A stretch of 59,388 bases of DNA, counting the filler, from Squatina squatina (Eukaryota): assembly GCA_031763465.1 (NCBI GenBank). It is 3 parts of 3 records of this genome, joined end to end, with 100 filler letters (N's around TTAATTAATTAA, not from the genome) between each part and the next. Parts side by side here need not be neighbours in the genome. Positions count along the whole stretch, not along the records: positions 40,225 to 59,388 come from JARFOE010000046.1; 2 more parts are not named here. One strand, 5' to 3'. Below are positions 20,978-59,388 of this stretch, piece by piece. Each line of letters starts with the position of its first letter. The first letter of the stretch is position 1. A program made the translations under genes and the position numbers. The notes under the pieces were generated by a model that saw nothing but the letters and a program-made list of their open reading frames with translations, had not been told where the DNA came from and searched no databases.

Positions 20978-21077
20978 NNNNNNNNNNNNNNNNNNNNNNN
21001 NNNNNNNNNNNNNNNNNNNNNTTAATTAATTAANNNNNNNNNNNNNNNNNNNNNNNNNNNNNNNNNNNNNNNNNNNN
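20978..21077. other. Artificial scaffold-joining spacer (44 N + TTAATTAATTAA + 44 N)
   Basis: TTAATTAATTAA at 21022-21033 (stop codons in all six frames), centred in exactly 100 bp; identical spacer at 40125-40224. Confidence 0.95.
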
Positions 21078-22824: not shown

Positions 22825-22915
22825 AAGAAAGTCTTGCATTTCCGACCACCGGACGTTTCAAAACGTTTTACAGCCAATGAAGTACTTTTGGAGTGTGGTC
22901 AATGTTGCAATGTGA
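22825..22915 (-). mobile_element. Deu-type SINE 3' tail fragment
   Basis: gtcttgcattt...cgttttacagccaatgaagtacttttggagtgtggtc matches the reverse complement of 8700-8790. Confidence 0.65.
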
Positions 22916-22994
22916 ATGTAATGTAGCGTAATAAGAAACAGTTTCAGTGATCAGTCCTTCTTCCACATCTAAGTTTTCATACACACGCGCAGTA

Positions 22995-23410
22995 AGATAG
23001 ACAGATAGATAGACAAATAGATAGATAGAGATAGACANNNNNNNNNNNNNNNNNNNNNNNNNNNNNNNNNNNNNNNNNNNNNNNNNNNNNNNNNNNNNNN
23101 NNNNNNNNNNNNNNNNNNNNNNNNNNNNNNNNNNNNNNNNNNNNNNNNNNNNNNNNNNNNNNNNNNNNNNNNNNNNNNNNNNNNNNNNNNNNNNNNNNNN
23201 NNNNNNNNNNNNNNNNNNNNNNNNNNNNNNNNNNNNNNNNNNNNNNNNNNNNNNNNNNNNNNNNNNNNNNNNNNNNNNNNNNNNNNNNNNNNNNNNNNNN
23301 NNNNNNNNNNNNNNNNNNNNNNNNNNNNNNNNNNNNNNNNNNNNNNNNNNNNNNNNNNNNNNNNNNNNNNNNNNAAAGAGATAGAAAGAGAGATGGATAG
23401 ATAGATAGAC
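22995..23410. repeat. (GATA/GACA)n microsatellite spanning a gap
   Basis: gatagacagatagatagac... on both sides of the N run 23038-23374. Confidence 0.85.
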
Positions 23411-23784
23411 GCATATTTTGTGAATCTAACTAATTCATTCCGGAACAAGATGTTCTGTGTATTTGGTAATATTAGGATAATGTTAGAAATGCTCGGTAAT
23501 AAAGCGGTTTGTAAAATTGCGCCACAATGTGTACAGTTTGAAATCGGTGTTTATCTCTTATTTTGCGCGGTTTCCAAGCACATTCCATGCCACAGCGAGG
23601 TCACGAGGTAGCCTGGGAGATAAGTGTTCGGTGTAATTAAGAGATGCCTTCATTTACATCTTGAAAATAACACCTAGCACATTGAGGGAAAAAAGGGGGC
23701 GTTGGGCTGTTATTATATCGCCTTTCAGCTGCATGTTCAACATGTTAAGACCCAGCTGGTGCGGCTGGAGAAACGTTCAGGTAC

Positions 23785-24366
23785 CTTCAGTCCCTGATGT
23801 GTACTGGCAGTTGTCTTGTGTGGGGTAGGAAGCACAGTGCAGCTGGCCAGTAGCTACAAGCGTTTGCAAGTTGAATGCAGAAGTTCTCAGAATGCGGGCC
23901 GCTTGTGAAGAGTCTCCGAGAGAAATGATATCATCTACTTGGTTCACCGTGCCCTGGGAGGGCCTCATCTCCGCGCAGTACCTCCCTGTCCGGGACTGGC
24001 CACTCTGACAACCCACCAGAGTATTGGAGGCTGCTGTGTGCGCCAGAGACCAAATCCTCGGCTTCTCCGCTGTCCCAAAGCGCTGCGGGAGATTGTTCCT
24101 TGCTATAGAAACAGGTGGCTTATTTGTCAGCGTTTCTAGAAAGTCAGACCCAAGGGTGGAATTGTTTTTCGAACAGGAAAAGGTGTGCTGATTGCTTTGA
24201 GGCGACACATTGCAGTCACTTTCCTCAGACTCCACCAAACCTCTCCTTGGACCGACCTCACTTGATGCCTTTTCTTGGTCACTTTCACGTTTTTCTGATT
24301 CATCGTCTTCCAAGTCGTCCAGATCACTCAACCTCAACTCTTTGTCATCTCTGTATTCTTTCTCAT
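23785..24366 (-). CDS. IRX6: Iroquois homeobox gene exon 5 (acidic region + IRO box)
   Basis: cacacag|AT GAG AAA; DKELRLSDLDDLEDDESE, IRO box KPRIWSLAHTA, end CQYTSGTE-G|gtacc. If the donor is not used, read-through stops at TGA 23777-23779. Confidence 0.85.
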
Positions 24367-24992
24367 CTGTGTGCACATTCAAAAACATTAACATTTCTTT
24401 CTGTAATGTATTCATGTTTTTTGTTACTAATGAACGACTTTTGAAAGTATTCCTTTCTTACGATTGTAAGAACAAGTCTGAATAAACCTTACCTTGCAAA
24501 GTGCTACAAAATCTGTACGGGGTTATCAGGTCTCTGGTATCTAAAGGCTACCGACTTTATTCATATTATGATAATCTGTTGGTACTTTGTTAGATTTCTG
24601 AAACTTCTGAGTTTTCCACTTGCGTCTCACATTTAAGTTTTTTCCAGTTATTTTGCAATATAATTATGAAAGACAGTATACTAAGTCAAGGTCTGCGCGT
24701 CTATGTATCTGCGTGTCTATGTAGTTTCAAGTTATGCCCAAATAGNNNNNNNNNNNNNNNNNNNNNNNNNNNNNNNNNNNNNNNNNNNNNNNNNNNNNNN
24801 NNNNNNNNNNNNNNNNNNNNNNNNNNNNNNNNNNNNNNNNNNNNNNNNNNNNNNNNNNNNNNNNNNNNNNNNNNNNNNNNNNNNNNNNNNNNNNNNNNNN
24901 NNNNNNNNNNNNNNNNNNNNNNNNNNNNNNNNNNNNNNNNNNNNNNNNNNNNNNNNNNNNNNNNNNNNNNNNNNNNNNNNNNNNNNNNNNNN

Positions 24993-25047
24993 TTCTCGGG
25001 TGGCATTCTTGCGTCGAGTGCCGCCGTTGAAGTCCATGGTACCGCAT
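24993..25047 (-). CDS. IRX6: Iroquois exon 4, 5' part (homeodomain N-terminal arm; remainder in gap 24746-24992)
   Basis: gtttgtag|A TGC GGT ACC ATG GAC TTC AAC GGC GGC ACT CGA CGC AAG AAT GCC ACC CGA GAA = (R)CGTMDFNGGTRRKNATRE; RRKNATRE is the start of the Irx TALE homeodomain. Confidence 0.93.
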
Positions 25048-25238
25048 CTACAAACAGCAATAAGATCAAACCCGATCACCTCTTCCATTGAACCAAAAAC
25101 AGTGCAATTGACAGGGCAGTAGATGACAAAACCAACAATCGATAAATACATGCAACTGCAAATCCGAATAATTAAAAAAGCGCTTTTCCTCAAGCACCTT
25201 TTTGATCTGGGTATGTTTGCTATGATCAAAGGGCTTAC

Positions 25239-40124: not shown

Positions 40125-40224
40125 NNNNNNNNNNNNNNNNNNNNNNNNNNNNNNNNNNNNNNNNNNNNTTAATTAATTAANNNNNNNNNNNNNNNNNNNN
40201 NNNNNNNNNNNNNNNNNNNNNNNN
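40125..40224. other. Artificial scaffold-joining spacer (44 N + TTAATTAATTAA + 44 N)
   Basis: TTAATTAATTAA at 40169-40180; same layout as 20978-21077. Confidence 0.95.
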
Positions 40225-43200
40225 TATTTACAACATCCAACTTCTCCGGGGCTCTGCTACTTAAAAAATAGTTTACCGTGGAACCTGCAGTTTCTTTCTA
40301 TTCTGTTATATTATTTCTATGAGTGGAAAAGTCATTTATAAATAATGACACAATGTTTTTGGTCCCGGGGCGAGTCCAATATATCAAAGCGATTAGCAGG
40401 TGTATTGTTCTTTTCTTCAGCCTGTCTCCTTTCAGTCTTACTCTTCGTGTCGTCTATCCAAACCTCTTTCTAAACCCATTGTTTCCTCTATTCTTTCTGC
40501 TTGTTACAGTCCAATGACATTATTTTTTTTCTTTAGTTCAAGCACTCGCAGCGTGAAGGGGGCTCCTGCTTCCACAGTGTGTAGGCTTTTATTGTACACG
40601 TTCACATTCGCTTTCAGCGCGGCTTTAGACATTAGGGGAGCTGCTCGGGATCAAAACCAGTTTTTGAACCCGATTATTATTATGCTAAGTTATGGGAGAA
40701 AATGCACTTCCTTTACGAGCAGGATANNNNNNNNNNNNNNNNNNNNNNNNNNNNNNNNNNNNNNNNNNNNNNNNNNNNNNNNNNNNNNNNNNNNNNNNNN
40801 NNNNNNNNNNNNNNNNNNNNNNNNNNNNNNNNNNNNNNNNNNNNNNNNNNNNNNNNNNNNNNNNNNNNNNNNNNNNNNNNNNNNNNNNNNNNNNNNNNNN
40901 NNNNNNNNNNNNNNNNNNNNNNNNNNNNNNNNNNNNNNNNNNNNNNNNNNNNNNNNNNNNNNNNNNNNNNNNNNNNNNNNNNNNNNNNNNNNNNNNNNNN
41001 NNNNNNNNNNNNNNNNNNNNNNNNNNNNNNNNNNNNNNNNNNNNNNNNNNNNNNNNNNNNNNNNNNNNNNNNNNNNNNNNNNNNNNNNNNNNNNNNNNNN
41101 NNNNNNNNNNNNNNNNNNNNNNNNNNNNNNNNNNNNNNNNNNNNNNNNNNNNNNNNNNNNNNNNNNNNNNNNNNNNNNNNNNNNNNNNNNNNNNNNNNNN
41201 NNNNNNNNNNNNNNNNNNNNNNNNNNNNNNNNNNNNNNNNNNNNNNNNNNNNNNNNNNNNNNNNNNNNNNNNNNNNNNNNNNNNNNNNNNNNNNNNNNNN
41301 NNNNNNNNNNNNNNNNNNNNNNNNNNNNNNNNNNNNNNNNNNNNNNNNNNNNNNNNNNNNNNNNNNNNNNNNNNNNNNNNNNNNNNNNNNNNNNNNNNNN
41401 NNNNNNNNNNNNNNNNNNNNNNNNNNNNNNNNNNNNNNNNNNNNNNNNNNNNNNNNNNNNNNNNNNNNNNNNNNNNNNNNNNNNNNNNNNNNNNNNNNNN
41501 NNNNNNNNNNNNNNNNNNNNNNNNNNNNNNNNNNNNNNNNNNNNNNNNNNNNNNGCAGTGTCTGCGAGCTGCGCGGACTTTCAGTTTTCGGCAGATCGGA
41601 TTTTCTAATCGATTATTATTGGCAAATCTTATCAATTCCACAGAGCACAGGGAAAATGGTGCATTCGATTCAAGTCTTAATATAATTCATCAAATTATAA
41701 AATGATGACCATCCTGTTGGTTTTACTGGTAGAGAAATTGCTGCAATTATTGATTAAACTAATGAAATATTCTGCATACTCATTAACGTTTGGGATTAAT
41801 GTACATCACAAATACAGTTTTTAAAGCTCCATATCACACATCGCTTTGTTTTTGAATTTGTTGGAAATTAAGATTTAGGAAAATACGTGTTTTTGGATAG
41901 ATAGTAAGTAATGCGCCGGCGAACTTGGGTCAAAGTTTATTACCACTGGGGTAAATTGGTAAAATGTGGAGATCTTAACTCTTCCTCATCCCGACCATAG
42001 TCTCGTTACAAAGGGATTATTCAACCCGCAGGACACATTTGTGGATTCAAAGACTGGCCCCATTTAAAGAAAATCGCTGCACGCACACATACAAAATACA
42101 GAAACACACAAACAGGTATATCGAGAGACTAACACAGACGCGTGCAGACAAAACAAACATACACAGACACAGGAAACACAAATTCATCGGCACACCAGTA
42201 TAGCAACAGACAGACAATCACACGGACAAATATGCCCCAACATTCACACAGACGCGCAGAGCTGCACATACACTTGTCAGACACAAAAAAATGGTCCTGC
42301 AGACTAAGAGCTCACACTCAGCCACAAACTCAGTGAAGCTTTTAATGGGGTCTGTCTATGAGGCCATGGCCAAACTGGAGAAATTTACATGGCAGGTGCT
42401 TGATTCTTGTCACTCCATTTCTTAAAGGAACTTTAATAAGGGATAAATGAGCAGGAATTAAAACAACTGACGCTGGAATAAAAGAACTGCTCAGTCTTAT
42501 CACAGCCTTCACTATAACCGACGTTCAAGTCTACTCCAACCCTTTTGAAACTCCATGAAAGACGCATGCAAGTTTAACCGATTTGATTTTAAAATTTAAT
42601 TTTGGAGTACGCACTNNNNNNNNNNNNNNNNNNNNNNNNNNNNNNNNNNNNNNNNNNNNNNNNNNNNNNNNNNNNNNNNNNNNNNNNNNNNNNNNNNNNN
42701 NNNNNNNNNNNNNNNTGCTTGTTCTGCTTCTTCTTTCTGAGGCAGCTGCACAGCCAGCAATGCTGAGAATGAGGTGCTGCAGCATCAATGAACCTCCCCT
42801 TTAAGCAGCGAAAAAAGTTTGTGGCAATCATGCACCGGATATTGGTCTACTCTTTGAGTGTAACACTAATGAGCTTGGGCTTTAAGACTTGAATTCGGAC
42901 TCCAATCATTTTATTGAGCAGTGAGAACGAATTTTGCATGCTGCCTAAAGCATTTGCGCCTGGTGCTAATTCTCCAGCTTCTCTACATTCCTTGGCTATA
43001 AAGAATTTCTAGCCTGTAGTCTGTAAGCTTCATATGACTTCACCAACCGCAAGGAAGACATTCTTGTGGTATGAATGAAATTGGCCATCAGCAACAGAAA
43101 ATGCGATATCAAAATCACTCTATTAAACATGATAAATAATACCACATGTTTCTCAGTGAATTCAAGACAGCTACCTGATCTTAATGTTTGCATAACATAG

Positions 43201-44288
43201 AAGCACTCCAATTTTGTTCTGGTGGTTTATGTTGGCATATGAATCCCTTATTTTGATTTCTGCTTAAAAACTTACAGACCAGGATCCAATATCTTCAACG
43301 GTATACAAAAATGTCCAATGTATTGAATTAGGGTTAAATACAGAGAACTCTGGGCTCATAATAGATAGACTGCACATGTTCTTTGCTAAAGGCAAATTCT
43401 TTAGAAACTACCAAGATCAAGGACATAAATGATGTACAGTAATATGTAGGAGTATTAAATGTTTTGCAACATTACATATTTGGTTTCCAAGTATTAATGT
43501 TGGATTTAAATCAAACATGTAATATACTTAACAGTGAGGGAGTTACAGATGACTCTGTAATGGAAGATTTTTCAGGTTATCCGACAGTGATTAATATGTT
43601 CTGGAGATGTTTAATTCACATTGCCAGCCAAACAAGGGAGGTGAAGTCACAGCAATGAAGTTTCATGACACATATCTGCTTAAGAAGGAAGAGATTGAAA
43701 GATGTAGGCTAAGTACAGATATGGGTAGTCAAATAAATATGGAGTGAGATAGTTGCAGTCTTGTTGAAAGATGGGAATTTCATCTGTCGAATGCAACTCT
43801 TCACAGTTGAATGATGTGGATTGGAATGTTACATTGATACACAGGAGGTTTTTTTTATCATCTTCAGGGGTTCTGTGAGAAATTTCAAAGTTTTAGATTT
43901 GTTTTGCCTGTGGTTATGCACTTCTTTCGGCAGATCAAGTTGTTATGTAGGCTCCACAATGGTGCAAATTACGTAAGGTCGAGGGAGTGAGGCTGATAGG
44001 CTGAATTTTTCATTCTATACATTGGCCCTGAAATTGCGATCGGAGGCTTCATGCGTGCTAATGCCTCCGATCGCAAACAAATTTACGTACTTACCTAAGG
44101 GTCCTCGATCCATGTGACCTTGCGAGTTTGAGCCCCCCGAGTTGGAGTTTTGTAGCAGGGCTCTGTGGAGTCCTGGGCACGTTGAGCGNNNNNNNNNNNN
44201 NNNNNNNNNNNNNNNNNNNNNNNNNNNNNNNNNNNNNNNNNNNNNNNNNNNNNNNNNNNNNNNNNNNNNNNNNNNNNNNNNNNNNNNN

Positions 44289-44470
44289 TGAGGTGACTAG
44301 CAGCGATGCGTTTAAGGGGAAGCTAGATAACAACATGAAGGAGAAAGGAATAGAAGGATAAATTAATGGGGTTAGATGAAGAAGGGTGGGAGGAAGATTA
44401 TGTGGAGTGTAAACACTGGCATAGACCTGTTTGGCCGAATGGCCTGTTTCTGTGCTGTAACTACTATGTG
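44289..44470 (+). mobile_element. CR1 3' end
   Basis: EVTSSDAFKGKLDNNMKEKGIEG followed by the tail ggccgaatggcctgtttctgtgctgtaa. Confidence 0.8.
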
Positions 44471-47400
44471 ATACTACGTACTTATTCAGGAAAATCTTTT
44501 ACATTTGTGTGAAAGTTTCCAATTCCATTGTGTTTTTTTTAAGAATGAGAACATTACACCATACATAACCAATGTGTGGTCAGTTCAGATTGCTAACAAG
44601 TCATCCTGCATCTTCCATTTATAATACAAATGTTAACTTTCTACCACAACACGCCCCCTTTCTACACAATTGTAACAGACATGAGCAAAGGTGCACATTC
44701 CAACATTATTCATTTTCACAATGCTAACACTCCAATTTTCTTAAATTGGTACAAGCATTCAAACAATTCAAGTTACAGCAGCAGAGCAGGACTAACTCTC
44801 AGGAAATTCAGAATTTATCAAAATGTTAAGAATTTATTTAATGGGTTTGAAATCCATTTTTCAGTCCAACAGCGTAGCAATAAAGCATTTTCTGCCTTTT
44901 TTCTGACATTGTACATAGGACACAGTTGTTTCATATGTAACCTGTTCGCCAGCACACACCTAATAATAGGTTTGAACAAAAAGCCTTCGGGATGGAGGCG
45001 ACCTATATTTACATATGCACTGATAATTTTTTCCAACTTGTCGAAACTGTCAGAGTTTCACAGACTGAATCATTCAGTTAACGATGAGGACTGATCAAGA
45101 CAATCGCTTAGGGTTTACTTTGGGTGCTCTGGCAGGAGATCAGTGAAACCCCCTGAGAAATGGTGCAAATGTTTAAAAAGTGGCTGTTGATGCAATTTCT
45201 CCAGGGTTTCCACCCATCTTCTGCTAATGTTATAGTGGGGGATCGGGAGAAGCCTGTGGAAATACTACCCTAGCGAACAGTCAAAAAACACATTTGGGGT
45301 TGATTAAACACCCTGCAGAAACAGCAGGAGTTAGTTTGTTTCTGATCTGCCCAGCGGCAGCATGAGGCCATTGCGACTTTAATTACTGAATGTCATTACC
45401 GGAATGGCTGCAGGCCTCTGGAAAATTGCGCANNNNNNNNNNNNNNNNNNNNNNNNNNNNNNNNNNNNNNNNNNNNNNNNNNNNNNNNNNNNNNNNNNNN
45501 NNNNNNNNNNNNNNNNNNNNNNNNNNNNNNNNNNNNNNNNNNNNNNNNNNNNNNNNNNNNNNNNNNNNNNNNNNNNNNNNNNNNNNNNNNNNNNNNNNNN
45601 NNNNNNNNNNNNNNNNNNNNNNNNNNNNNNNNNNNNNNNNNNNNNNNNNNNNNNNNNNNNNNNNNNNNNNNNNNNNNNNNNNNNNNNNNNNNNNNNNNNN
45701 NNNNNNNNNNNNNNNNNNNNNNNNNNNNNNNNNNNNNNNNNNNNNNNNNNNNNNNNNNNNNNNNNNNNNNNNNNNNNNNNNNNNNNNNNNNNNNNNNNNN
45801 NNNNNNNNNNNNNNNNNNNNNNNNNNNNNNNNNNNNNNNNNNNNNNNNNNNNNNNNNNNNNNNNNNNNNNNNNNNNNNNNNNNNNNNNNNNNNNNNNNNN
45901 NNNNNNNNNNNNNNNNNNNNNNNNNNNNNNNNNNNNNNNNNNNNNNNNNNNNNNNNNNNNNNNNNNNNNNNNNNNNNNNNNNNNNNNNNNNNNNNNNNNN
46001 NNNNNNNNNAGTCTCAAGTTGATGTTGTTCAGGGGAAAAATAGGATATCAGCACTGCTGCTAGGTGCTGATAAACATGTTACTAAAACATCCATCTCACA
46101 GCTGCAATTTCAGCTGTCAAAAAAATTACTTACTTTTTTCAAATATCCTTCACTGAACAATCATCAGCATGAAAAATGAAATGACACAGGTTTACATGCA
46201 CATAATATACTTTGGTAATTGCGCAAGTGATGTAGCCCCAGTCCAAACTCACCAAATTAATTGCCTATTTCCATCTGTCAGTTTGGAGGGATTTTCAACA
46301 CATTAAGCTCTTAAAACCTCCTGTGAGAGTTTAGCATATGCTAATTTGCTTACTTCCTAGTTCCTTAATTGGATAATAAAATGGATCAGCAGAAAAATGG
46401 CAACACCACACACAATGGCCCAGAATTTGCAGTGGGTAATGAAGGTGAAGTATTAGCATTTGCCGCCATTACCCCTTTGAAACTGACCACAACTTCAGGA
46501 TATAACGCATGTCCATCTAAACACGGAAATCCTGAAGTTGCAGTCATTGCTTCGAAACAGGCTGCGCTGTGGAAGCTCCCTCCCCTCCACGCCCACCCCC
46601 GCAGTAGGCAATCAGTTAAATCAGTGAACCAAATAGAAACATGGGGGGCCCAATTGGACAGTTGGCGTAGGCGCAGAATGAGCACCAAATGGGTNNNNNN
46701 NNNNNNNNNNNNNNNNNNNNNNNNNNNNNNNNNNNNNNNNNNNNNNNNNNNNNNNNNNNNNNNNNNNNNNNNNNNNNNNNNNNNNNNNNNNNNNTTAAAG
46801 ACAACATATAAATACAAGTTGTTGTTGTTGTTGAAGTAATCATATAAAATCAAAGACTATCTATCTAACCTAACAATCTACTTTATTCAACTTCAACATT
46901 TGCTTTCCATAGGTGACACTGCCATGGTCCCAGCATCTAAGAAACTATGCAGTGTTTGATCATCTCAGAATGCTACTTTTCACAACTTACTGCTGAACAA
47001 TATTACCCTTACTTTCTTAAATAACTCTTTTTCATGTATGTTAAAAAAGGATAATATAGTTAAAACTATCTATCAAGGCTGTGGCACACCACAGAGTTCA
47101 GAAGATATCTATAGAGTGCTTCAGCTTTATTCTCACACCTCATTCTATAATTTTTTGGTATTCCATACATTACAGCCCTTATAATACCATATTTGAAAAG
47201 ATACTGGAAGTAAACATACATTCATTAGCATCTGCGGAGGAGTTAGCAAACTAGGATTACTTTCCATTACCAGTTACACTGAAGTGGAGCAGGATGGAAG
47301 CATTATTTTCACATCCGTGTCCACTAACTGCAACTGTTATTTAGCATTTTAATACTTGACTGTTAAATACCCTGAGGGTATTCAGTAAATCAATAAAGGA

Positions 47401-47962
47401 TATCACTGAAAGTGTGCCATGTGAATATTTAGATTCTCTGACTGTGTTTTGGTTTATCCTCTTTCAAATAAACAAAATCTTCAGCTTTTTCAAAATTACT
47501 GATGTACTTTGCTCGACATTTGTGCTTTTCTATCAGAACCAGCTGGTGCTGGAACCAATTTAGTCCTGTGAATTTCTAATCTCAATGCGCCAGCTTCCAT
47601 ATTAAGCTTTTGCAATGGCAGAGTGCATGAAATGGGTTTTATAATAGGGGTTTCTATGTCATGGAAGATTTTTTGAACTGCCTGTTAGCAGTTGATGTTG
47701 AAATGAAGCCACAGCAGTAGTGATACAGTTCCATTGGAAAGAAAAAAGGAAAGAAACACTTTTGTGTACAAAGTGTCTTATTATGATGAAATGGCTCAAG
47801 CATTTCATTCATTTGATTATTTTTGGAGTGCAATGATTGTTATGTACAACAACAATTAGGTAGTCAGAATATTCAACAAGAAAATATTCAACAGTGTGTG
47901 ACCATCCAACGGTCTTCTGAAGTTAAGCCAAGTATATATTTTTCTATTTCAAATAATTTCAA

Positions 47963-48445
47963 AGTCTGCCGCCATATCCTAACCTGCACCAAGCCCCGCT
48001 TACCCATCACACCTGTGCTCGCTGACATACATTGGCACCCGGTTCACCGATGATTAAAATTTAACATTCTTACCCTCATGTTCAAATCCCCTCCATAACC
48101 TCACTCTTCCTTATCTCTGTAACCTCCTCCAGTTCTATAACCCTCAGAGAACTCTACATTCCTTCAACTCTGGCCTCTTTCTGCATCTCTTTTGGCCCAC
48201 CTTTTGGCAGCCATGCCTTTTGGCCATCTAAGCTCTACCCTCTGGAATTCCCTTCCTAAACTTCCTCCTGTCTCTCTTTCTGTAAGATCCTTCTTAAAAC
48301 CCACCACTTTGGCCAAGCCTTTGGTCATCAGCCTGACCATCTGCTTCTTTGGTTTGACTGATTTTTTTTTCTTATTTATACTTCTATGAAGCACCTTGGA
48401 ATGTTTTCCTTTGTTAAAAGCACTATATAAATGCATGCTGCTGCT
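47963..48445 (+). mobile_element. L2 LINE 3' end
   Basis: PITPVLADIHWHPV and STLWNSLP motifs; tail gcactatataaatgcatgctgctg. Confidence 0.82.
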
Positions 48446-48687
48446 GAATTAAATTTTAGTATCTATATTTTTGTATTGGGTTGTAGAACAGATTATTGTA
48501 ATAGTAACTAGCAAATTTTCCACTTTTTTATTTTTGTTTTGCAAAGGTATATTTTAAAGCAGCTCAGCAGTGGAACATTTAAGATGTGNNNNNNNNNNNN
48601 NNNNNNNNNNNNNNNNNNNNNNNNNNNNNNNNNNNNNNNNNNNNNNNNNNNNNNNNNNNNNNNNNNNNNNNNNNNNNNNNNNNNNNN

Positions 48688-49140
48688 NGTGCTATCCACG
48701 ACGTCCGCAGCATCGCGGATGCTCAATGTATATACATTTGAAGCTCTAGCGCCGCAATGCGGTCTGCCAGTAGCTGCAGCTGGATACACTTCCTGCACAC
48801 ATGGTTTGTCCCTGATTTCCCACATAGCGCAGGAGGAGCATTCCACGGGGCTGAGCTGTGCTGCCATGTCTTTCCCTTTGATTATCTTAAATTTAATTAA
48901 ATCAAATCAAAGCCCACTAATTACACTACCTTTAAATGGTATTAATTACTCAAGGGCCCTTGTTTACTAGCACACCTCACTACGCAATAGAGATCTTTTA
49001 GAAACTATAAGACACAAAATAAAGACCTTCTAAACCTTATAAACTGTCAAGCTATAGATTAGTATAAATACTCACCTGACCATGCTCACCCAATCAGCTG
49101 CTTCCTTCTTGCCCGCGCCACTTTTTGAATCGTGACTGGT
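48688..49140 (-). mobile_element. CR1 LINE 5' UTR and ORF1 N-terminus (zinc finger + coiled coil), frameshifted
   Basis: ATG at 48867: MAAQLSPVECSSCAMWE, then in another frame HVCRKCIQLQLLADRIAALELQ. Confidence 0.82.
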
Positions 49141-49434
49141 TTCTGTGATAGGGGTGAGCATCTGCCCCTCCTCCACTCATTACATCTGGGTCTGAGGCCT
49201 CTCTGCAGGCCCTGCACTCTTTGTACNNNNNNNNNNNNNNNNNNNNNNNNNNNNNNNNNNNNNNNNNNNNNNNNNNNNNNNNNNNNNNNNNNNNNNNNNN
49301 NNNNNNNNNNNNNNNNNNNNNNNNNNCAGGCGGAGGAGGCTGGATGGGGACTAGTTGGGTCTCTGTTCAAAGAAGAAGCGGAGCGCCCTCGGGTCGTCCT
49401 GCTGGAGGACAGAAGTGTAGAGGGATTGGGCGTC

Positions 49435-49632
49435 CATGGTGAAAAGGCAATTGATAATAGATCAATTGTTAATTTTAAATCTAAGATCGATAGATTTATG
49501 TTAACCAATGGCATTAAGGGATATGGGCCAAAGACGGGTATATGGATTTTGGCTGGAAATCAGCCATGATCTCATTGAATGGTGGAACAGGCTCGAGGGA
49601 CTGTGCGGCCTACTCCTGTTATTATGTTCCGA
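49435..49632 (+). mobile_element. CR1 3' end
   Basis: SIVNFKSKIDRFMLTNGIKGYG followed by tail atcagccatgatctcattgaatggtggaacaggctcgaggg...cctactcctg. Confidence 0.82.
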
Positions 49633-49644
49633 TGTTTTGGTGTT

Positions 49645-49722
49645 GCTAAATAGGATATTCTTCATCCTCTTTACTTCCTCAACTAAAACCTCCAGGGCAT
49701 CATCGGAGAGTCTTGGCACTCT
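49645..49722 (-). mobile_element. Harbinger Myb-like ORF N-terminal fragment
   Basis: PRLSDDALEVLVEEVKRMKNILF, the same motif as 55085-55160; short. Confidence 0.5.
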
Positions 49723-50389
49723 CCCAAATCAATATTTTTTGCCTTCCAGTCGAGAAGAAGACTTCAGTTGAGCTAAGAGGTGCAGGCCATCTGGAACTGA
49801 TTTCCGGACATCTAAAATCCCCTCCCCAACAGCCAAACTGTGCAGTTACCAACACTATTCACACTGACCGCTCGCCCATCAAATTTAAACCACTCCACCC
49901 ACAATGTACCCATTTTTTCCCCGTGTTGCTAGAGAATTTGAAATGGACAAGTTAGATATAAAAATGTTTTAGATAACAATTTTCACTGCAGAGTTTGTGC
50001 AAATTTGTCTTTCTACCATGATTTTTTAATTATAGTGCTCCCAACTGTATTATAGTCTAAACTGTTGCCATATCACATTTTTTATGATCTCCTAAAGGGA
50101 ATAATGTAAGGATGTAAAATGGAAAAGGTAATTTCAGTGACCAAATTTGGAAATGTAACTGAGTACGAATGTTGAAAATTAAAGGAAAAAATTGAATACT
50201 TTCAAGTTGTCAAATTTTATAATTTTAAAACTTTCTTCTTCTCCACCCCAATTCAGAAATGGGCGGAGTTACACATTCGGACTCTTGAATGCCACCAGTG
50301 TCTGTGCCTGAAAGCCATCCAACTATTCACTGGCTTCAAATCAAAGTTCCATGGGAATGAAAGAAGAGCTTCAGCATGAAGGAGCGAGG

Positions 50390-50720
50390 AGCAATGCAAA
50401 GATATGCAAATGCCATGTGACTGCACTGATACTGTCTGAATGAGTTGGAAAGTTTACATTATGCAAATAGTCCCGATGCACAACAAAAGTGGAGTTGTAG
50501 TCCCCAGGATCAAAACACAGTTTTGCTTTTCACTGCCATGCCTTGTCGGTTCCTAGGGAGTCAGACATTTTCGCGTAAGTATGCTAACAAGAAACAGCAA
50601 ATACTTTGCTGGAGACTACTCATTCTAATTTGCTCCAGCCTCTTTGCTACAATGTTTGAATAAAAGGAGCACTGAACTCCTTATGGACAATGTGGTAGGC
50701 AGATTGATTAAATCTAATCA
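50390..50720. promoter_or_regulatory. Candidate POU/SOX enhancer
   Basis: Perfect octamers ATGCAAAT at 50404-50411 and 50461-50468; SOX-type AACAAAAG at 50482-50489 and ACAATG twice near 50650-50692. Confidence 0.35.
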
Positions 50721-50967
50721 TTGCTTGCTCGGGTTCTGGGTGTTTAACATTCCACTTTTAAAAAATGACAGAATTAAATGGTCTCTGAGAGTTATAGTGA
50801 CCAGTGAGATACAGCTATGCAATTTCAAACACAAAACTTACATTTGTCTAAATTTTCTTTAAGGAAAGAGAATATATGCATATATTTTGGGAAGTCACTG
50901 TGCAGTTTGGTCATACTTACAGGAGAATAGATTGCTTCATTTAGGGCTGTTGGTATGGTTGTGCACA

Positions 50968-51358
50968 TTTTTTTTAAATTCATTCACAGAATGTGGGCAT
51001 CGCCAGCAAGGCCAGCATTTATTGCCCATCCCTAATTGCCCTTGAACTGAGTGGCTTGCTGGGCCATCTCAGAGAGCAGTTAAGAACCAACCACCTTGCT
51101 GTGGGGTCTGGAGTCACTTATAGGTCAGACTGGAAAAGGACACCAGATTTCCTTCCATAAAGGGCATTAGTAAACCAGATGGTTACAACAATCCAGTAGT
51201 TTCACATGATTACTGTTATAAGCTTTTTTTTAAAATTCCAGATTTATCAAACTGTATTCTCCAGCTGCTGTGGTGGGGTTTGAAATCATATCTGTGGATC
51301 ATTAGTTGAGGCTTCTGGATTAGTAGTCCAGTAACATAACCACTAAACTACTGCACCC
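50968..51358 (-). mobile_element. tRNA-derived SINE with LINE-derived tail
   Basis: Minus-strand head gggtgcagtagtttagtggttatgttactggactactaatccaga...tttcaaacccc; its last ~65 nt match the LINE tail at 34627-34692. Confidence 0.75.
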
Positions 51359-51551
51359 ATGTGGCAATCTTATTGCCGTTATGCTGGGGAATGGTGTACT
51401 GCCCTCTCTCTCAGTATGCTGTTTGCTTTAGGGAGATCTAGAGACAGGAAAAAGAGGAGAAAATGAGTTCTATGGCTTAAAAGAAACATACTATGCGTTA
51501 ATTAGAAATAAATTTAAATTTAAAGCCTTAAAATGATACAGTGAGGTAAAG

Positions 51552-51975
51552 AAAGACATTATTTGCATTTATGTAGCAGCTTTCATATCCTCAGGACATC
51601 CATAAGCACTTCACAGCCAATTAAATACTGTTCAAACGTAGTCACTGTTGTAATTTAGGAAACACAGCCGCCATTTCATACAGCAAGCTCCCACAAACAG
51701 CAATAAGATAAATGTTGTTCAGTTGATATTGGTTGAGGGGTAAATATTGGTCAGTGTTCTGGGGAGAACTCCCCTGCTCTTCTTCAAATAGTGCCCTGGG
51801 ATCTTTAACGTTCACCTAAAAAGGCAGACAGAACCCTTTGCTTTAACTTCCCATCCAAAAGACAGCACCTCCCTCAAAGTGTCAGCCTGGATTATATGCT
51901 CATGTCTCATGGAGGGGGCTTTGAAACATATGATTTTCTAATCATGGTGGCAAGTTTGCTACCAGTGAGTCACAA
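51552..51975 (-). mobile_element. Deu-type SINE, near full length, decayed
   Basis: Reverse-complement similarity to 8357-8795 across its length. Confidence 0.78.
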
Positions 51976-52332
51976 CTAACATTGACCAACCTACCAATAC
52001 CTAATGCACTCAAGTGAAATCCCTTCTTCTGTTATTTTACTGAAAAAATCAACTCATTATAATGAATAGATAATATGCCTGTTAAATAGCAGAGGGAGGA
52101 ATTCCATATTCTAGCATTCTGTGGCGGGAATTCAAAGTGCTTTGACTTTAAGACTGAACTATAGGACAAATTGGTTCCTAACTCAAAGGTTGAGAGATCA
52201 GGGCAGTGAGAACAGTTGTAGACACAATGGGTTAAGTGGACTCCTTCTGTGCTGTACACCTCAATGGATCTAAGGAAACCTTGAACACTTAACAAGATCT
52301 CTCGTTACTTTTGGACTAGGGTGGCCCAGGAG

Positions 52333-52602
52333 TAGGATGACCAGATGTCCCGGTTTTGCCGGGTCAGTCCCGGTTTTTCAGGACACGTCCCGATACTTAC
52401 CTTCAAATTGCTCAAATGTCCCGGTTTCTGGGAGCGAGAGACAGAGCCCTGACTGCGCGCGCACAGTCGATACGGAGCCGTGACTGCGTACGCACAGTCG
52501 ATACGGAGCCGTGACTGCGCACGCACAGTCGATACGGAGCCGTGACTGTACACGCACAGACTGATTGTCCCGCTTTGGGACTCTTCAGATCTGGTCACCC
52601 TA
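52333..52602. mobile_element. hAT-type MITE with internal 31-bp tandem array
   Basis: TIRs TAGGATGACCAGAT / ATCTGGTCACCCTA (13 of 14 match); repeated (T)GTCCCG subterminal motifs; array units start at 52450, 52481, 52512 and 52543. No 8-bp TSD seen. Confidence 0.75.
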
Positions 52603-53760
52603 AATATGTGTTTTTCATGAAACAGACCAAGGTCCTTCAGTGCGTCACTTTATTTCTTCAACAAAGCCGACCTGAGTCTTTTGATGTCCCTGCGCTCAGT
52701 GCTTTAACAATACCCGGAATGTGGGCTGTGGGCTTAAAACATCTGGAAATGACCAAGAAGATATGAAAGAAGATTGACAACTGTTATTTCCTATATGCCA
52801 CACTCAGCCCTACTCTGAGAAACTCCAGCCAAAGTCAATACAACTCCCTCCAATGGGAAAATTGGAGGGTGATTCTTTTGCATTTCACAGGGCTGATTCA
52901 GAGTAGCGGAGTAGATTGTGAAGCCACCTTCTTGGTGGGAGGGACACNNNNNNNNNNGTGCATGAGGAAGAAAAAGATGGAGAGTACACAAATTGGAGAC
53001 AAACAGTTTGACCTTCCCGCAAAGAAGGACAGGAACATTTTGTTTTGTGGACAGATTAGGAGTAATAATCCTCAGAAAGAGCTGAGAGAAGCACGGTACA
53101 TTCTCAGTAAACATTGAGGGAAATGCAACGCACATAGAAAGAGGCAATGCAGAAAAACTGAATAAAGAGAGACAGAGAAAAGAACAAAAGGGATGGCATA
53201 AAAATGCAAAAGGTTCAGTAAAAGGAGTTGTGGCAGACACNNNNNNNNNNNNNNNNNNNNNNNNNNNNNNNNNNNNNNNNNNNNNNNNNNNNNNNNNNNN
53301 NNNNNNNNNNNNNNNNNNNNNNNNNNNNNNNNNNNNNNNNAGAGAAAGGCTGCCTCAACACTGACAATAGGGGATAATTGTGATGTTCAAGAAACGAGGC
53401 AAAAATGACGTGAAAAATACTGTGGTATGTCACAGCTCTATTCAGAACAAGCTAATCGGTTGGGTCACACCATAGAGGATGAAAACAATTGTCAGCCAAC
53501 TATGAAAGAACTAAGCAGAAGCCAGTGCATTATCCATTGATCATATAATTTGTTTTAACAATGCATGTGTCTTCAGAGCATTGAATCTCATTTATTTCAT
53601 GCGTTTTAAAACAGTTTCGACAGTCTCTACAAATCCTACCATGTGCACTTTTATAGAATAGCCACTTAGCTGAATTGCTGATCAGTGCCTGTGGAACACT
53701 GCCACAATAGGCAGTGGCTTCAGAAGAGGAGAAAAGTAGTTACAGTCAAATGTTACACGC

Positions 53761-53843
53761 AAACAGAAATTGCTGAAAATACTCAGCAGGTCAGGCAGTA
53801 TCTGTGGAGAGAGAAACGGAGTTGATGTTTCAGGTCGATGACT
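53761..53843 (-). mobile_element. Penelope-like terminal-repeat fragment
   Basis: Matches 3924-4008; truncated before the CTGATGA box. Confidence 0.6.
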
Positions 53844-55039
53844 TAGTCGAATGTGAGTAGCTTTATTACCGCAATATGAATGCGTGAGCTAAAAACCTAT
53901 GTAAAAACACTGGTTGGTCNNNNNNNNNNNNNNNNNNNNNNNNNNNNNNNNNNNNNNNNNNNNNNNNNNNNNNNNNNNNNNNNNNNNNNNNNNNNNNNNN
54001 NNNNNNNNNNNNNNNNNNNAGACCAAAATGATTCATGAGAATAGCCTGAAAACTATACACACGTAGCCTCAAACGTTCCATTAACCTAAGCACATTTTGG
54101 ACAGATGAAGTTGAGATAAATAGATCGAGTTACATCGGCGATCCTTCACTTTACAGAGACTCTTCGAAGAAAAACAGTCAAAGATATATTAATCCCCATT
54201 GTGTGGCTAACAATGGCTCTTGATTGAAACACATTTGATATCGCCATCAAAATTGGAAAGCTTTCTGAAGCTTAAATAATTCAATTACTTGCATTAAAAA
54301 ATAATTGAAAGGTGAGCTACAAAGTATGTGCATATCCCTGGTTACGAATTTTTGAATTGCTCATTGCATTTTGAATCAAAGAGTAGATGAGAACTTTTTA
54401 TCGAATATAATAAAGTGGTCTGTTTCATTGATTGATTGAAGATGATTTTTTATTTGTATCTTAACAGACAGAAATATACACGTGACGGTCCAGCAGGTGA
54501 TGTAAGACACAGCAGTGAGAGAGAAAATAGGGGCTGGACCTTATACTGGGAAAGAATGGGGAGGCAGGAGCCAGGAGAAAGCAGGGGTTGGTGGGCCTGA
54601 GTTAAACAGTGTTCCAAGGGAGGTGGCGGTGGGAGGTGGAAGTAGGAGTGTGCTGCACATCTTGGGGTTGATTTTAATTTATTATTAATGGGGTGGGAAC
54701 ATCCTCAAAATTGGGTTGGTGGCCTTATTGCCCTGTAAACTTCAACACCCAAAGCAAATGTCTGTTTCAGACAGTAAAGCCGCAATTTTTCCTATCAAGT
54801 CGGAAGCAAAGCCAGTGACTTTGGGTGCAAGCTGGAACCTTGCTCCTTTATTCATCTGCCTCTGTCCAAGTGATTTTATGTAGCTGAGGCTTGTTAAGCC
54901 CGCCCTGCAAGGTTCCCGACCAATTAAAAGGAAGCAGGTCTGATGATGTTATTGATGATGTGTCATCAGCCAGTTTCCTTAAAGGGACCATGTCTACATT
55001 CATTTTGACATTTGTGCTGTCAGTGTTCTACAGCATTGA

Positions 55040-55295
55040 GGAGCTGCAAACACTGACAAGCACTGCACAAGGGTGCACGGCTACACCCAGGCTCTCCCAT
55101 GACTCCCTCCAGATGCTTATGGAGGGAGTCACAGCACACAGGGAGGTTCTGTTCCCTTCCAATTGGCAGAAGAGACCTTCCCAGAACAACAGCGCAGCCT
55201 GGTCGCACATTGCACAGGAGGGCACAAGCAAGAATATCATCAGGAGGACCTGGCTGCAGTGGCGCAAACCTTTCAATGATCTCAGTGAATCAAGA
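55040..55295 (+). mobile_element. Harbinger Myb/SANT-like (trihelix) ORF fragment
   Basis: PRLSHDSLQMLMEGVTAHREVLF...AAWSHIAQE...RTWLQWRKPFNDL fits the 'PRFS...L..LL..V......LF...W..IA.......RT..QCRKRFNDL' pattern. Confidence 0.8.
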
Positions 55296-55744
55296 AATGT
55301 TACTGCAAAGCCACACGCAACCNNNNNNNNNNNNNNNNNNNNNNNNNNNNNNNNNNNNNNNNNNNNNNNNNNNNNNNNNNNNNNNNNNNNNNNNNNNNNN
55401 NNNNNNNNNNNNNNNNNNNNNNGATGATGATGAGGTACCTGGTGAGGGGTGAGCACATCATAGCTCCAGAAAGGACAAGGGATCTGTGGTCCAAATCTTG
55501 CATTGTGCTGTTGAGCTTGCATAGGACTTCACATCTGTGGCAGGATCCTCCACAGGGACATCTGTTGCTAATTCTGTACTTGCCAGCAATTCTATCAAAA
55601 AAATTCAAGGAATACTCAGCCACTACTTCCACCACACACTGAAAGCTCACTAGAGAAGGACATTTTCCTTCTTGATTAGGTCATTTAAAATGTCCATGAC
55701 ACTGAGCAGTCTGGTAACACCCAAAAGCACAATGACAACAAAAG

Positions 55745-55845
55745 AGCAGGAGAGTGGGACTAATTGGATAGCTCTTTCAAAGAGCAGGCATAGGCACAAT
55801 GGGCTGAATGGCCTCCTGTGCTGTATCATTCTATGATCCTATGAC
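55745..55845 (+). mobile_element. CR1 3' UTR tail
   Basis: gggctgaatggcctcctgtgctgtatcattctatgatcctatga is a CR1-type tail ending in the (attctatg)n-like repeat. Confidence 0.7.
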
Positions 55846-56744
55846 TGTGTTTCATGACACAGAATGTTGCTTGTAGCAGATTGGCTATACAGTTCATTTG
55901 TTTAGCACTGGTGAGAAATAAACAATCCTCCTCCTTCTCCCAACTTTGGATTGTTCCAATTTAGAGCTCCTTTCAGTCCTTGGAGGGTCAATCTGTAGTA
56001 GCTGCTTTTACTGTCCAGTTCTTCGATAGCTGAGTGTGATCCTATGGAGGTACTTTAGGTGATGAGTCCTTCCGAAGCTCAGCAGCCAGTCCTTTGTAAA
56101 GTATGTAAATTGAACATATTACATAGATTTATAATAAAATAATGGAAGTATTTAAATATATTATATATTTAAAAAGTGATTGTTTGTTTATTAATTAGTT
56201 AATTGTGCATTTGTATTTAAAGTACTGAACAGTACTCTTTAGTTTTGCACACTACAAATAATGTATTTGTCAATGTTTATTTTTATATTCTATCCAGCAG
56301 TGATAACAAAGAAAATTTCATATTCAGTTGTAAAATATGACAGTTATTTGACAATATGGTTTGCTTTTATGACTTTGTCCTGTGTCTTTTTAACTCCTTG
56401 GTGCCAGTTCTCCATTTCTATTTCATATACAGACTGTAAACCTACAACATCTTGCCTTCTTAATTCTTAAGGTTTCTAGAAGATTCTATCATGTTCTTTT
56501 AACCTCTGGGTCCCACTTTATTAATATCCTCATGTAGCAGATTACATGTTTTTTTTGTTGGAAACAAATAAATTATTTTCATCCCAAGCTCCCCTGAGCC
56601 TTACAGACAAGGAAAGTGTCAGATTTGATTCCTGGTCTTCCAGTACAGAAGACCAAGGTAGCTTATCTCAGCTAAGTTGGCAAAAATGGGGTTGGGTGTT
56701 TCAACAGCAGTAGTGGAAAGGATGGAAGCGAAACAGACAGAGTT

Positions 56745-57205
56745 CAGGAGGTGGAAATAGACATGCAGTATAATGGCGAAAAATGTGAAGTTGTCCACTT
56801 TGGAAGCAAAAACAGAAAGGCAGAGTATTTTTTTAAATGGTGATAGATTAGGGATTGTTGATGTACAAAGGGAGCTGGGTGTTCTTGTACACCAGTCACT
56901 GAAAGCTACCATGCACGTGCAGCGGGCAGTTAGGAAGGCAAATTGTATGTTGGCTTTTATTACAAGATTTGAATACAGGAGTAAAGATGTCTTACTGCGA
57001 TTATACAGGGCCTTGGTGAGACCACACCTGGAATATTGTGTACAGTTTTGGTCTCCTTACCTAAGGAAGGATGTACTTTCCATGGTGGGAGTGCAGCAAA
57101 GGTTCACCAGACTGATTCCTGGGATGCCGGGATTGCCGTATGAGGAGAGATTGAGTAGAATGGGCCTGTATTCTCTAGAGTTTAGAAGAATGAGAGGTGA
57201 TCTCA
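56745..57205 (+). mobile_element. CR1 LINE ORF2 C-terminal fragment
   Basis: QRELGVLVHQSLK, LYRALVRPHLEYCVQFWSPYLRKD, VQQRFTRLIPG, RRMRGDL. Confidence 0.95.
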
Positions 57206-57614
57206 NNNNNNNNNNNNNNNNNNNNNNNNNNNNNNNNNNNNNNNNNNNNNNNNNNNNNNNNNNNNNNNNNNNNNNNNNNNNNNNNNNNNNNNNNNNNNNN
57301 NNNNNGTGACCTCAGATGAGACAGTCGGAAGAGCCACCACCTAGTGTGGGACTGAACCCAGGTTAATCCCTGTTGTGTGCTGGGTTGGCTGATTTCAGCC
57401 AAGACAACAGTAGGGATGTTACAAGGGGCTTCAGTGCCCCAGTCTTCGGAGATGGAACAAAAAATCAGCCTCGATCATGCTACTGATGGCAATTTGGTGA
57501 CGGCTTGGACATTGTGAAGTAATGTTTGACCTAATATGTTTGCCTTTGTTCATTTAATCACTCGTTCCTCCTGCACTCAAACTTGATGCTTGGATTCAAA
57601 ATTCAACCAACAAA

Positions 57615-58095
57615 AGTGAGCAGGAAGTGGTTTGATGCACCGAATTTACAAAAAAATTAATGTCGCGGCTGTGCATACACACGACAAACTTACAGGGAAG
57701 ATTCATGAATATATAGTTGAATTGCCTTTGAACATAAATGCATGACATTTTGCATGCATCATGAAAACTAAATGATTCAAATCATGGAGTAAAAATGCCA
57801 CAAATGCTCGCAGTTGCTGATATAGATGGTATTAATAGGAAAATTTATCATATAACAAATCTTCCTTTGAGGTTCAAAAATAACCTTTTATGACTGAATG
57901 ATAATCATTTTACAGTCCTACTTAATTTCCCATTATGAAACAGATATGCACCAGATAATGTGAGTCAACAAACTTTTTAAAAATTTTCTTGTTGTACAAT
58001 AGGAAAAGTAATACCCACCTGTCCATTCACTTATCTCTGCAAGGGACCTCCCCTTAACCAGGGAATTTCTGAACAAGACCTGATTTAAGTACATG
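57615..58095 (+). promoter_or_regulatory. Candidate inducible immune-gene promoter
   Basis: ETS CAGGAAGTG 57621-57629; NFAT-type AGGAAAA 57837-57843 and 58001-58007; GATA AGATAA 57953-57958 and TTATCT 58031-58036; AP-1 TGAGTCA 57961-57967; NF-kB GGGACCTCCC 58043-58052 and GGGAATTTCT 58061-58070. Confidence 0.5.
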
Positions 58096-58178
58096 GCTAC
58101 ATGGCCTCAAATCAATATTTTTTGGCACAGTGGTGTTCTCTTCGTGACATATTGAGGAGCACCTGTTCAAACAGTAAA

Positions 58179-58304
58179 ATGCTGAAGTACGCGGCATTCA
58201 GCTTTAGCCTGATTCTCTGTGTTCTGTGTGAAGCAATGGAGGAATGCAGCTCAGTACATGAACTGCTGCAGGATGTGGATAATATAATTACGTTTTGCAA
58301 TCAG
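58179..58304 (+). CDS. Candidate exon 1 of a secreted short-chain helical cytokine (IL-9-like)
   Basis: aaaATG...AAT CAG|gtattc; 126 nt = MLKYAAFSFSLILCVLCEA-MEECSSVHELLQDVDNIITFCNQ (signal peptide, Cys, amphipathic helix, phase-0 donor), next to FBXL21. Other exons not visible (gap follows at 58339). Confidence 0.55.
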
Positions 58305-58725
58305 GTATTCTGATAATGATCAAGAATATTATTCTCAANNNNNNNNNNNNNNNNNNNNNNNNNNNNNNNNNNNNNNNNNNNNNNNNNNNNNNNNNNNNNN
58401 NNNNNNNNNNNNNNNNNNNNNNNNNNNNNNNNNNNNNNATCAAAAGTAATATACTTGCAATTTCAACATGACATTTGAGAAAAAAATCAAACAAATTTTA
58501 AAAATTCTTTGAAACTACACTTTAACCGAGGTAAACTTGACAAAATCACATCCCATTTTACTTTATTAAACTTGTTATCCCATAGACTAGTCTGATTTTG
58601 TTTAAATACCGTGCTAGGGTCGAAGCTAGTCATCTAGATCCAACACTTGCTAATTATAATTGTGTGCAAAATGCTCACTTTCAATAAAAGTAACACCACC
58701 TTTTGTTCCTCACTTTTTTTTCAGA

Positions 58726-59094
58726 ATGAAGCAAAACCGAGCTAAGCAAAAAGTTGAGACCCAGCCTGCTTCAGATGTTCTTAAAGGAACTAAAAGACAG
58801 AAGACCAGGTTAGCTCAAGGCAGTGAAACTTTGAGTGCTTCTCATGTAGACTGGGGAAACCTGCATTATGAGGTGATTCTGCACATCTTTCAGTACTTAC
58901 CATTGGTGGATCGGGCTTACGCATCATCAGTATGTAGAACATGGAATGAAGTCTTTCACATGCCGGAGCTATGGAGACGATTTGAGTTTGAACTGAACCA
59001 GCCAGCCACATCCTATTTGAAATCAACCCACCCAGATCTGATCCAGCAGATAATCAAAAAGCATGCAGATCATCTGCAGTATGTCAGTTTTAAG
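58726..59094 (+). CDS. FBXL21: F-box/LRR protein FBXL21, first coding exon (F-box domain)
   Basis: tttttcag|A ATG...TTT AAG|gtaaat; 123 codons with [37 protein letters not shown]...[24 protein letters not shown]. The residues ASSVCR, WNEVFH and [14 protein letters not shown] favour FBXL21 over its paralogue FBXL3. Confidence 0.88.
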
Positions 59095-59388
59095 GTAAAT
59101 AAAAAGAAAGTATGAGCCATACAGTTTTTTAAAGCTATTATTTCTTTTGGTATGCAGAATTTTTCCTTCTCTTCCCTCCATGCCCCCCCGCCCCCACAGC
59201 CCAATACATTTCTCTCCTTTACTGAAAGCCGGCAGTCCTCTGGTACCTTAACAGTGGCTATACTTCAGTTGAGAGAGTGTCAGAAGATTGGTTGACTGTG
59301 GGGAACATTATAGCCGAGTTTAATCCTATCCATCCTTCCACTTCATGAGAGAAATCACTTTATGATCAGGGGCAAGAATGTTAGTGAT

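Follow-up and report, generated by a model that had tools for sequence, protein, structure and literature searches.

The IL-9 gene comprises five exons separated by phase-0 introns, and in human IL9 a Cys lies eight residues before an Asp, with an intron nine residues after it. To our knowledge IL9 is the sole cytokine gene known beside FBXL21, with which human IL9 is presumably arranged head-to-head, and SLC25A48 is, we take it, a further neighbor of IL9 in mammals. A leader, a helix A and a phase-0 boundary are likewise found in IL-2, IL-10-family and interferon genes, and promoter sites for NFAT, AP-1, NF-kB and GATA factors are common to many T-cell cytokine genes, while type I interferon genes carry IRF sites in their proximal promoters. 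In the accessible parts of the published descriptions, mammalian IL-9 is given a leader of 18 aa (PMC6522352) and chicken IL-9 one of 20 aa, and the mature chicken chain, as read from a primer, has a Cys at position 3 (PMC9252340). The accessible text on the protein itself describes ten conserved cysteines forming five disulfides, a tip of helix A that is disulfide-linked to helix C, an A-C face that binds IL-9R-alpha and primes the recruitment of gamma-c, and a receptor specificity derived from helix C (bioRxiv 2022.12.30.522308). The mammalian IL-9 promoter is reported to be bound by NF-AT, AP-1, NF-kB and GATA3 (PMC1112611, PMC11263352, PMC5954031, in their accessible sections). Among related cytokines, the sections available describe an IL-4 exon 1 that encodes the leader and helix A in a gene with phase-0 introns (PMC4905449), and an acidic residue in helix A of IL-15L, IL-2, IL-15 and IL-4 (PMC7658486) as well as of the IL-5 family (PMC4690019).

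The record for fishes is largely one of absence. Redmond et al. 2018, in the portion of their report at hand, did not find IL-9 in the transcriptomes of catshark, blue shark and dogfish or in the whale shark proteome, list it as one of two T-helper genes missing in cartilaginous fish, and consider shark IL-9 to be either lost or yet to be discovered (PMC6238376). Yamaguchi et al. 2015 state that fish IL-9 had yet to be found, and a 2019 review restates, in its accessible part, the absence of IL-9 from the elephant shark (PMC6795676). The available text of Kubick et al. 2021 dates IL9 to amphibians and reports IL9R in ray-finned fish, while its introduction names IL9, by citation, among the fish interleukins (PMC8226699). 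The accessible sections of PMC9465101 and PMC13753702 add no information on shark IL-9, and no report of a shark IL-9 was found in the open-access literature, a scope outside which most subscription journals fall; a shark IL-9 candidate is thus likely to be novel. Other shark cytokines have been placed by their neighborhoods, with IL-4/13 reported between KIF3A and RAD50 (PMC4905449, accessible part) and the IL-5fam genes in the same KIF3A/RAD50 locus (PMC4690019, accessible part). The elephant shark IL-2, IL-4/13, IL-5fam and IL-26L genes resemble the candidate described below in being small and fast-evolving, in escaping homology searches and in being recognized by position and exon layout (PMC4690019, accessible part), but they have full ORFs and some of them supporting reads, whereas the candidate is a single exon of a draft assembly.

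The window analyzed here, by which we mean the entire 59,388-nt stretch of DNA from Squatina squatina (assembly GCA_031763465.1), consists of three unrelated scaffolds joined by 12-nt linkers with stops in all frames and 44 N on each side (at 21022-21033 and 40169-40180). Because these linkers join unrelated scaffolds, genes in different thirds of the window are not neighbors. Each scaffold is composed of contigs of 0.3-3.6 kb separated by sized gaps and many 100-N gaps, and the one bearing on the candidate is the third (40225-59388). An earlier reading made from the sequence only had proposed that 58179-58304 in this scaffold is the first exon of an IL-9 orthologue or a related gamma-chain cytokine next to FBXL21, with the other exons lost in the adjoining gap. 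The candidate's contig is not repeated elsewhere within the window and is flanked by 100-N gaps at 57206-57305 and 58339-58438; these gaps, and the F-box exon beyond the second, have the coordinates that reading described. The second gap, whose true size is uncertain, could hide the remaining exons. A control for such gaps is provided by HACE1 on the first scaffold, where exons at 540-671 and 1986-2101 (+) match residues 738-781 and 839-875 of PDB 8h8x and lie 1.3 kb apart with a single 100-N gap between them. A motif search of the window found none of the 57 HACE1 residues that separate the two matched exons, indicating that entire exons can disappear into the 100-N gaps of this assembly, while order and strand were preserved across the join in this single case. 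The last exon of HACE1 is likewise missing from the assembly.

The remaining content of the window is varied. The region 22650-26698 (-) contains an Iroquois homeobox gene, IRX6/IRX4-like in its features, with a homeodomain exon interrupted by the gap 24746-24992 and non-homeodomain exons that found no match in Pfam or PDB. A Myb/SANT-like domain (Pfam PF13873, E 1e-7) is encoded at 54888-55322 (+), and a broken ORF at 20364-20977 (+) on the first scaffold has by eye the look of a Harbinger-type transposase; both look like PIF/Harbinger remnants. The end of the contig preceding the candidate (56740-57205) is by eye a LINE-like fragment with no match in Pfam, and 20-nt and 31-nt tandem repeats are present at 52347-52559.

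Translation of 58179-58304 (+) reproduced the 42 residues of the sequence-only reading, with 42 codons free of stops running from the ATG at 58179, which has an A at -3, to a phase-0 CAG/GTATTC donor at 58302-58310. Reading through the donor adds two further codons and then meets three consecutive stops. This donor is the best-scoring GT in 58179-58338, and it is a weak one, with 0.8 bits on our own matrix, on which six true donors of the window score 1.6-7.7, and with 7% of 5,673 GT sites scoring at least as high. The exon has a GC content of 0.44, which drops to 0.24 just past the donor, where an AT-rich putative intron begins (58305-58338 (+)), bearing the three in-frame stops and cut by the gap. 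Residues 1-19 (58179-58235 (+)) are predicted by our own heuristic to form a signal peptide with Lys3 and a hydrophobic core (best 9-residue hydropathy 3.0), cleaved after Cys17 or Ala19. The remainder (58236-58304 (+)) is predicted to supply the mature N-terminus and helix A, with 23 mature residues encoded in exon 1 and a hydrophobic moment of up to 0.57. On a helical wheel the residues V26, L29, L30, V33, I36, I37 and C40 all fall within 120 degrees, Asp32 lies at the border of this arc, and Cys23, which is mature position 4 if cleavage occurs after Ala19, precedes the helix. Two further elements of the earlier description hold up at this level: the basic-hydrophobic leader with a cleavage site passes our heuristic filter for n-, h- and c-regions, and the hydrophobic residues spaced around Asp32 follow, by wheel angles, the pattern of an amphipathic helix. 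A predicted leader, an amphipathic helix A that includes an acidic residue, and a phase-0 end occur together in this exon, as in short-chain four-helix cytokines. A single-sequence AlphaFold model of the 42-mer (one helix over residues 3-41, pLDDT 70, pTM 0.29) adds no information on the fold. Codon usage, by which the candidate was outranked by 45 of 532 null stretches, is a powerless test here because seven of eight true exons scored negative when left out.

Homology searches recovered no relative of this short peptide. A phmmer search against 1.84 billion representatives gave 0 hits at E 0.001, a word-index search of the protein collection for entries of near and longer lengths gave no match, and the same was the case for Pfam and PDB and for the ESM Atlas queried with both the whole candidate and residues 18-42. 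Rfam gave no match either. The reach of phmmer for such a query can be gauged from simulated relatives, of which it caught 190/200 at 60% identity, 52/200 at 50% and 1/200 at 40%. As chicken and mammalian IL-9 already share less than 30% identity (PMC9252340, accessible part), tetrapod IL-9 lies beyond this reach. Annotated shark proteomes are present in a sister protein collection. The lack of a close shark relative among the representatives therefore leaves three options: a gene without annotation, a diverged one, or no real gene at all.

The last of these options can be weighed against the expectation by chance. The loose pattern of an ATG, a hydrophobic stretch and a phase-0 G/GTR donor is found in 6 ORFs in the window, and at this level the candidate is not beyond chance, since a Markov null gives 2.2 such ORFs per scaffold. 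A filter for n-region, h-region and cleavage site is passed by the candidate alone (1/20 ATG-to-donor ORFs in the window), with a null of 15 in 12 Mb or 0.04 per scaffold, and when a Pro-free amphipathic helix is added to the signal peptide the null falls to 2 in 12 Mb or 0.006 per scaffold. These filters, as well as the motif sets considered below, were all devised with the candidate sequence already in view, and the strictest tier, at 0.17 per Mb, corresponds to about a thousand chance ORFs in a multi-gigabase genome. As the whole genome would thus yield many chance passes, the filters gain weight from the genomic position of the candidate. It is against this background that a non-cytokine origin has to be considered, namely that 58179-58304 is chance sequence in intron 1 of FBXL21 or upstream of it, or else a non-coding alternative first exon of FBXL21 with an inducible promoter, whose ATG opens an upstream ORF alone. 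The thousand or so chance ORFs, the chance-level frequency of the loose pattern, the weak donor and the lack of both a homologue and any other exon speak for such an origin, as does the location on the same strand directly before the FBXL21 acceptor. The upstream region and the frame of the FBXL21 exon speak against it, as set out in the following, and we regard it as improbable in either version.

The 230 nt upstream of the candidate ATG contain a cluster of motifs of the inducible type that the sequence-only reading had overlooked. From its distal end this comprises, by consensus match, a GATA consensus (57953-57958) and an exact AP-1 consensus (57961-57967) at 57953-57967 (+), an NFAT-type WGGAAA (58001-58006) and a second GATA motif on the minus strand (58031-58036) at 58001-58036 (+), and two NF-kB-like sites (58043-58052 and 58061-58070) at 58043-58070 (+). 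The first of the latter matches GGGRNNYYCC, the second the relaxed GGGRNNYYCY alone, and neither matches the strictest consensus GGGRNWYYCC. NFAT-type and GATA motifs are common singly, with 150 and 143 matches in the window, while the AP-1 consensus occurs in 6 places and GGGRNNYYCC in 4, and 58043-58070 is the sole place in the window with two relaxed kB sites within 100 nt. All four classes (AP-1, kB, NFAT and GATA) occur together in 7 of 1,668 gap-free 250-nt windows, which overlap each other and lie directly before the ATG at 58179. These motifs were first spotted by eye and tested afterwards. For any one 250-nt stretch, the null rate of AP-1 together with a standard kB site is 6e-4. Leader exons of the loose type that have AP-1 and kB no more than 400 nt away number 7 in 16 Mb of null sequence (0.015 per scaffold), and 0 in 16 Mb when two kB sites are required. 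The joint chance of the exon anatomy and the motif cluster is hence at most 0.015 in the scaffold, which weighs against an origin of the exon as chance sequence.

The putative core promoter and 5' UTR (58082-58178 (+)), for which the transcription start is a prediction, have merely a weak AT stretch near 58083-58090 in the place of a TATA box, and no TATAWA match is present upstream of the candidate ATG. Two ATGs precede it, one out of frame at 58093 and one in frame at 58101 that adds 26 residues and would bury the leader if transcribed; there is none in 58104-58178. No STAT consensus was found in 57800-58178, and the same interval has 0 matches to the IRF pattern GAAANNGAAA, which argues against a type I interferon. 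Owing to the upstream motif cluster, the candidate is better supported than it was when first proposed.

The neighbor of the candidate is an exon at 58725-59094 (+), with the main ATG at 58726 and an F-box detected by Pfam, which is 82-89% identical to 'FBXL3-like' proteins of five elasmobranchs (89% to that of Mustelus). In a quick maximum-likelihood tree of this exon with 40 named proteins out of the 120 listed, assessed by SH-aLRT and no bootstrap, it groups with the five elasmobranch proteins (SH-aLRT 97), and this group falls inside the tetrapod FBXL21 clade (SH-aLRT 100), apart from FBXL3. The neighbor is thus, by its placement in the FBXL21 clade, the elasmobranch FBXL21 orthologue, so that identity and tree together uphold the earlier identification of this synteny anchor. 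The other half of the synteny argument, namely that IL9 lies next to FBXL21, is confirmed for placental mammals, in which IL9 and LECT2 flank FBXL21 according to the accessible part of PMC11505486. The assembled distance between the candidate and FBXL21 exons is 421 nt, including one 100-N gap of uncertain true size. As assembled the two are in tandem on the same strand, and the candidate's contig lies between two gaps. The earlier doubt about its orientation retains this latter basis, but the layout cannot be put down to the assembly without more ado, because the single HACE1 control join kept both order and strand; the tandem orientation may accordingly be real.

A feature that had also been overlooked is a CpG island 16 kb upstream of the candidate, where the scaffold begins and an 828-N gap interrupts the sequence (40225-42615), with a CpG o/e of 0.79 and 0.76 versus 0.13-0.52 in the other contigs of the third scaffold. 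This is possibly the promoter and first exon of FBXL21, in which case the assembled position of the candidate would fall within intron 1 of that gene; if the island belongs to another gene, the candidate would lie simply upstream of FBXL21. An E-box-like CACGTT at 40597, a perfect palindromic D-box at 43969-43976 and a further E-box-like site at 44178 are also present, and would presumably suit the promoter and first intron of a clock-controlled FBXL21. The bearing of the FBXL21 exon on an alternative-first-exon role is more direct. A splice from the candidate straight to 58725 is out of the FBXL21 frame and meets a stop six codons into that exon, whereas in paddlefish, amphibians and mammals the preceding FBXL21 exon encodes an unrelated N-terminal extension that is in frame; by eye the candidate has no likeness to such extensions among 24 named FBXL21/3 proteins. 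An alternative first exon would, moreover, place two ATGs in strong context upstream (58179 and 58236) and make the signal peptide pointless. Given these observations, 58179-58304 is probably a real, coding feature.

The search for the rest of the gene was negative. On both strands of the third scaffold, neither a splice-site scan nor a search by Cys motifs found further exons; among 129 ORFs of at least 48 aa only the F-box and the Myb/SANT transposon piece came above the cut-off, and the 85 of 305 ORFs of 24-47 aa that lie nearest the candidate included no further exon. Hence the earlier proposal that the other exons are lost in 58339-58438 gains from the HACE1 control, as such gaps do hide exons, but not from any further exon in the scaffold; by the same control, the absence of further exons means little. 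A segment at 56076-56275 (+), where four ATTTA fall within 150 nt of very AT-rich DNA as nowhere else in the third scaffold, was considered as a cytokine 3' UTR and rejected, as no convincing last exon precedes it. No SLC25A48 carrier-family motifs were found; a 28-codon ORF at 56045-56128 (-) with a by-eye likeness to a mitochondrial-carrier repeat has no Pfam match and is probably due to chance. The missing exons, together with the weak donor and weak TATA, would also suit a decayed IL-9 of which promoter and exon 1 survive in a dead gene, and so would the failure of Redmond et al. to find IL-9 in shark data. On the other side, the 42-codon frame, the helix periodicity and the motif cluster are all intact, the gaps account for the missing exons, and even the IL-4/13 and IL-5 genes are given as having 0-8 reads per 5e7 in resting shark tissue (PMC4690019, accessible part). 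Such decay is, in our estimate, very improbable.

Taken together, these observations render it quite probable that the candidate is the opening exon of a gene for an inducible cytokine of the helical type. For the identity of that cytokine the comparison with tetrapod IL-9 offers several likenesses: the FBXL21 neighbor, the length of the leader, a Cys early in the mature chain before helix A, and upstream consensus matches for NFAT, AP-1, NF-kB and GATA. It differs in having no detectable sequence similarity and in its tandem rather than head-to-head arrangement. The candidate has 126 coding nt and, relative to human IL9 exon 1, spacings that are one residue longer, its Cys lying nine residues before the Asp and its intron ten after, and no IL-9 counterpart of its Cys40 is known to us. 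The likeness to the IL-2/IL-15/IL-15L/IL-21 and IL-4/13 genes lies in the exon-1 layout (IL-4), the phase-0 intron and the acidic helix-A residue, and the hydrophobic spacing around the Asp is like that of IL-2 helix A; in this short-chain group, however, the shark genes have been assigned to other loci and there is no sequence match. The layout of leader, helix A and phase-0 intron claimed at the outset thus matches the cytokine group (PMC4905449, PMC7658486, both as far as accessible), and the helix-A Asp, which had been taken as a hallmark of IL-2-family cytokines, fits the wider cytokine family and does not single out IL-9. Support for the IL-9 or gamma-chain identity first proposed now comes from neighbor, layout and promoter motifs and not from sequence similarity to any cytokine.

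Since exon anatomy and promoter evidence are all family-wide, the exon could alternatively be genuine but open the gene of some other inducible and secreted helical cytokine, either at the FBXL21 locus or misjoined to it. Such a cytokine might be a gamma-chain or beta-chain family member other than IL-9, belong to type II, or represent a lineage lost in mammals. The acidic helix-A residues of the IL-15L/IL-2/IL-15/IL-4 and IL-5 families, the tandem orientation, the one-residue differences in spacing and an FBXL21 adjacency that hangs on a single 100-N join all leave room for this. We nonetheless deem it unlikely, because shark IL-4/13 and IL-5fam sit in the KIF3A/RAD50 locus, the missing IRF consensus is against a type I interferon, and no cytokine but IL9 is known to us beside FBXL21. 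Within the family it is synteny alone that singles out IL-9, the sequence itself holding nothing IL-9-specific. On balance we are inclined to interpret 57950-58304 as belonging to a gene for a secreted short-chain four-helix cytokine, of which it would comprise the proximal promoter together with the first coding exon, with an elasmobranch IL-9 orthologue as its likely identity, an interpretation that we favor by a modest degree. It is weakened by the poorly scoring donor, by the in-frame ATG at 58101, and by a location in tandem with FBXL21, between the CpG island and the coding exon of that gene.

If the exon indeed belongs to an IL-9 orthologue, its mechanism might be envisaged as follows. 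An antigen-receptor or inflammatory signal would bring NFAT, AP-1, NF-kB and GATA factors to the 230 nt upstream and thereby induce transcription. Exon 1 would supply a signal peptide of 17-19 residues and helix A, and would be spliced in phase 0 to further exons that are missing from the assembly. After cleavage, a disulfide of Cys23 could connect helix A, at its tip, with helix C, while the V26/L29/L30/V33/I36/I37/C40 face would pack into the core of the bundle. The A-C face with Asp32 might then meet the private receptor chain, upon which the common gamma chain would be recruited.

We consider the chances about even that a functional IL-9 gene persists in elasmobranchs with an NFAT/AP-1/NF-kB/GATA promoter reaching back about 450 million years, and that it lies in tandem with FBXL21 rather than head-to-head as in mammals, possibly within intron 1 of FBXL21. 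If true, the shark gene would be the first IL-9 outside tetrapods and would settle the question of whether it was lost or remained undiscovered in this lineage. It would also furnish a query for the FBXL21 loci of gar, sturgeon, coelacanth and teleosts, supply a ligand for the IL-9R-like chain of fish, and trace a Th9/ILC2-type effector back to the ancestor of jawed vertebrates.
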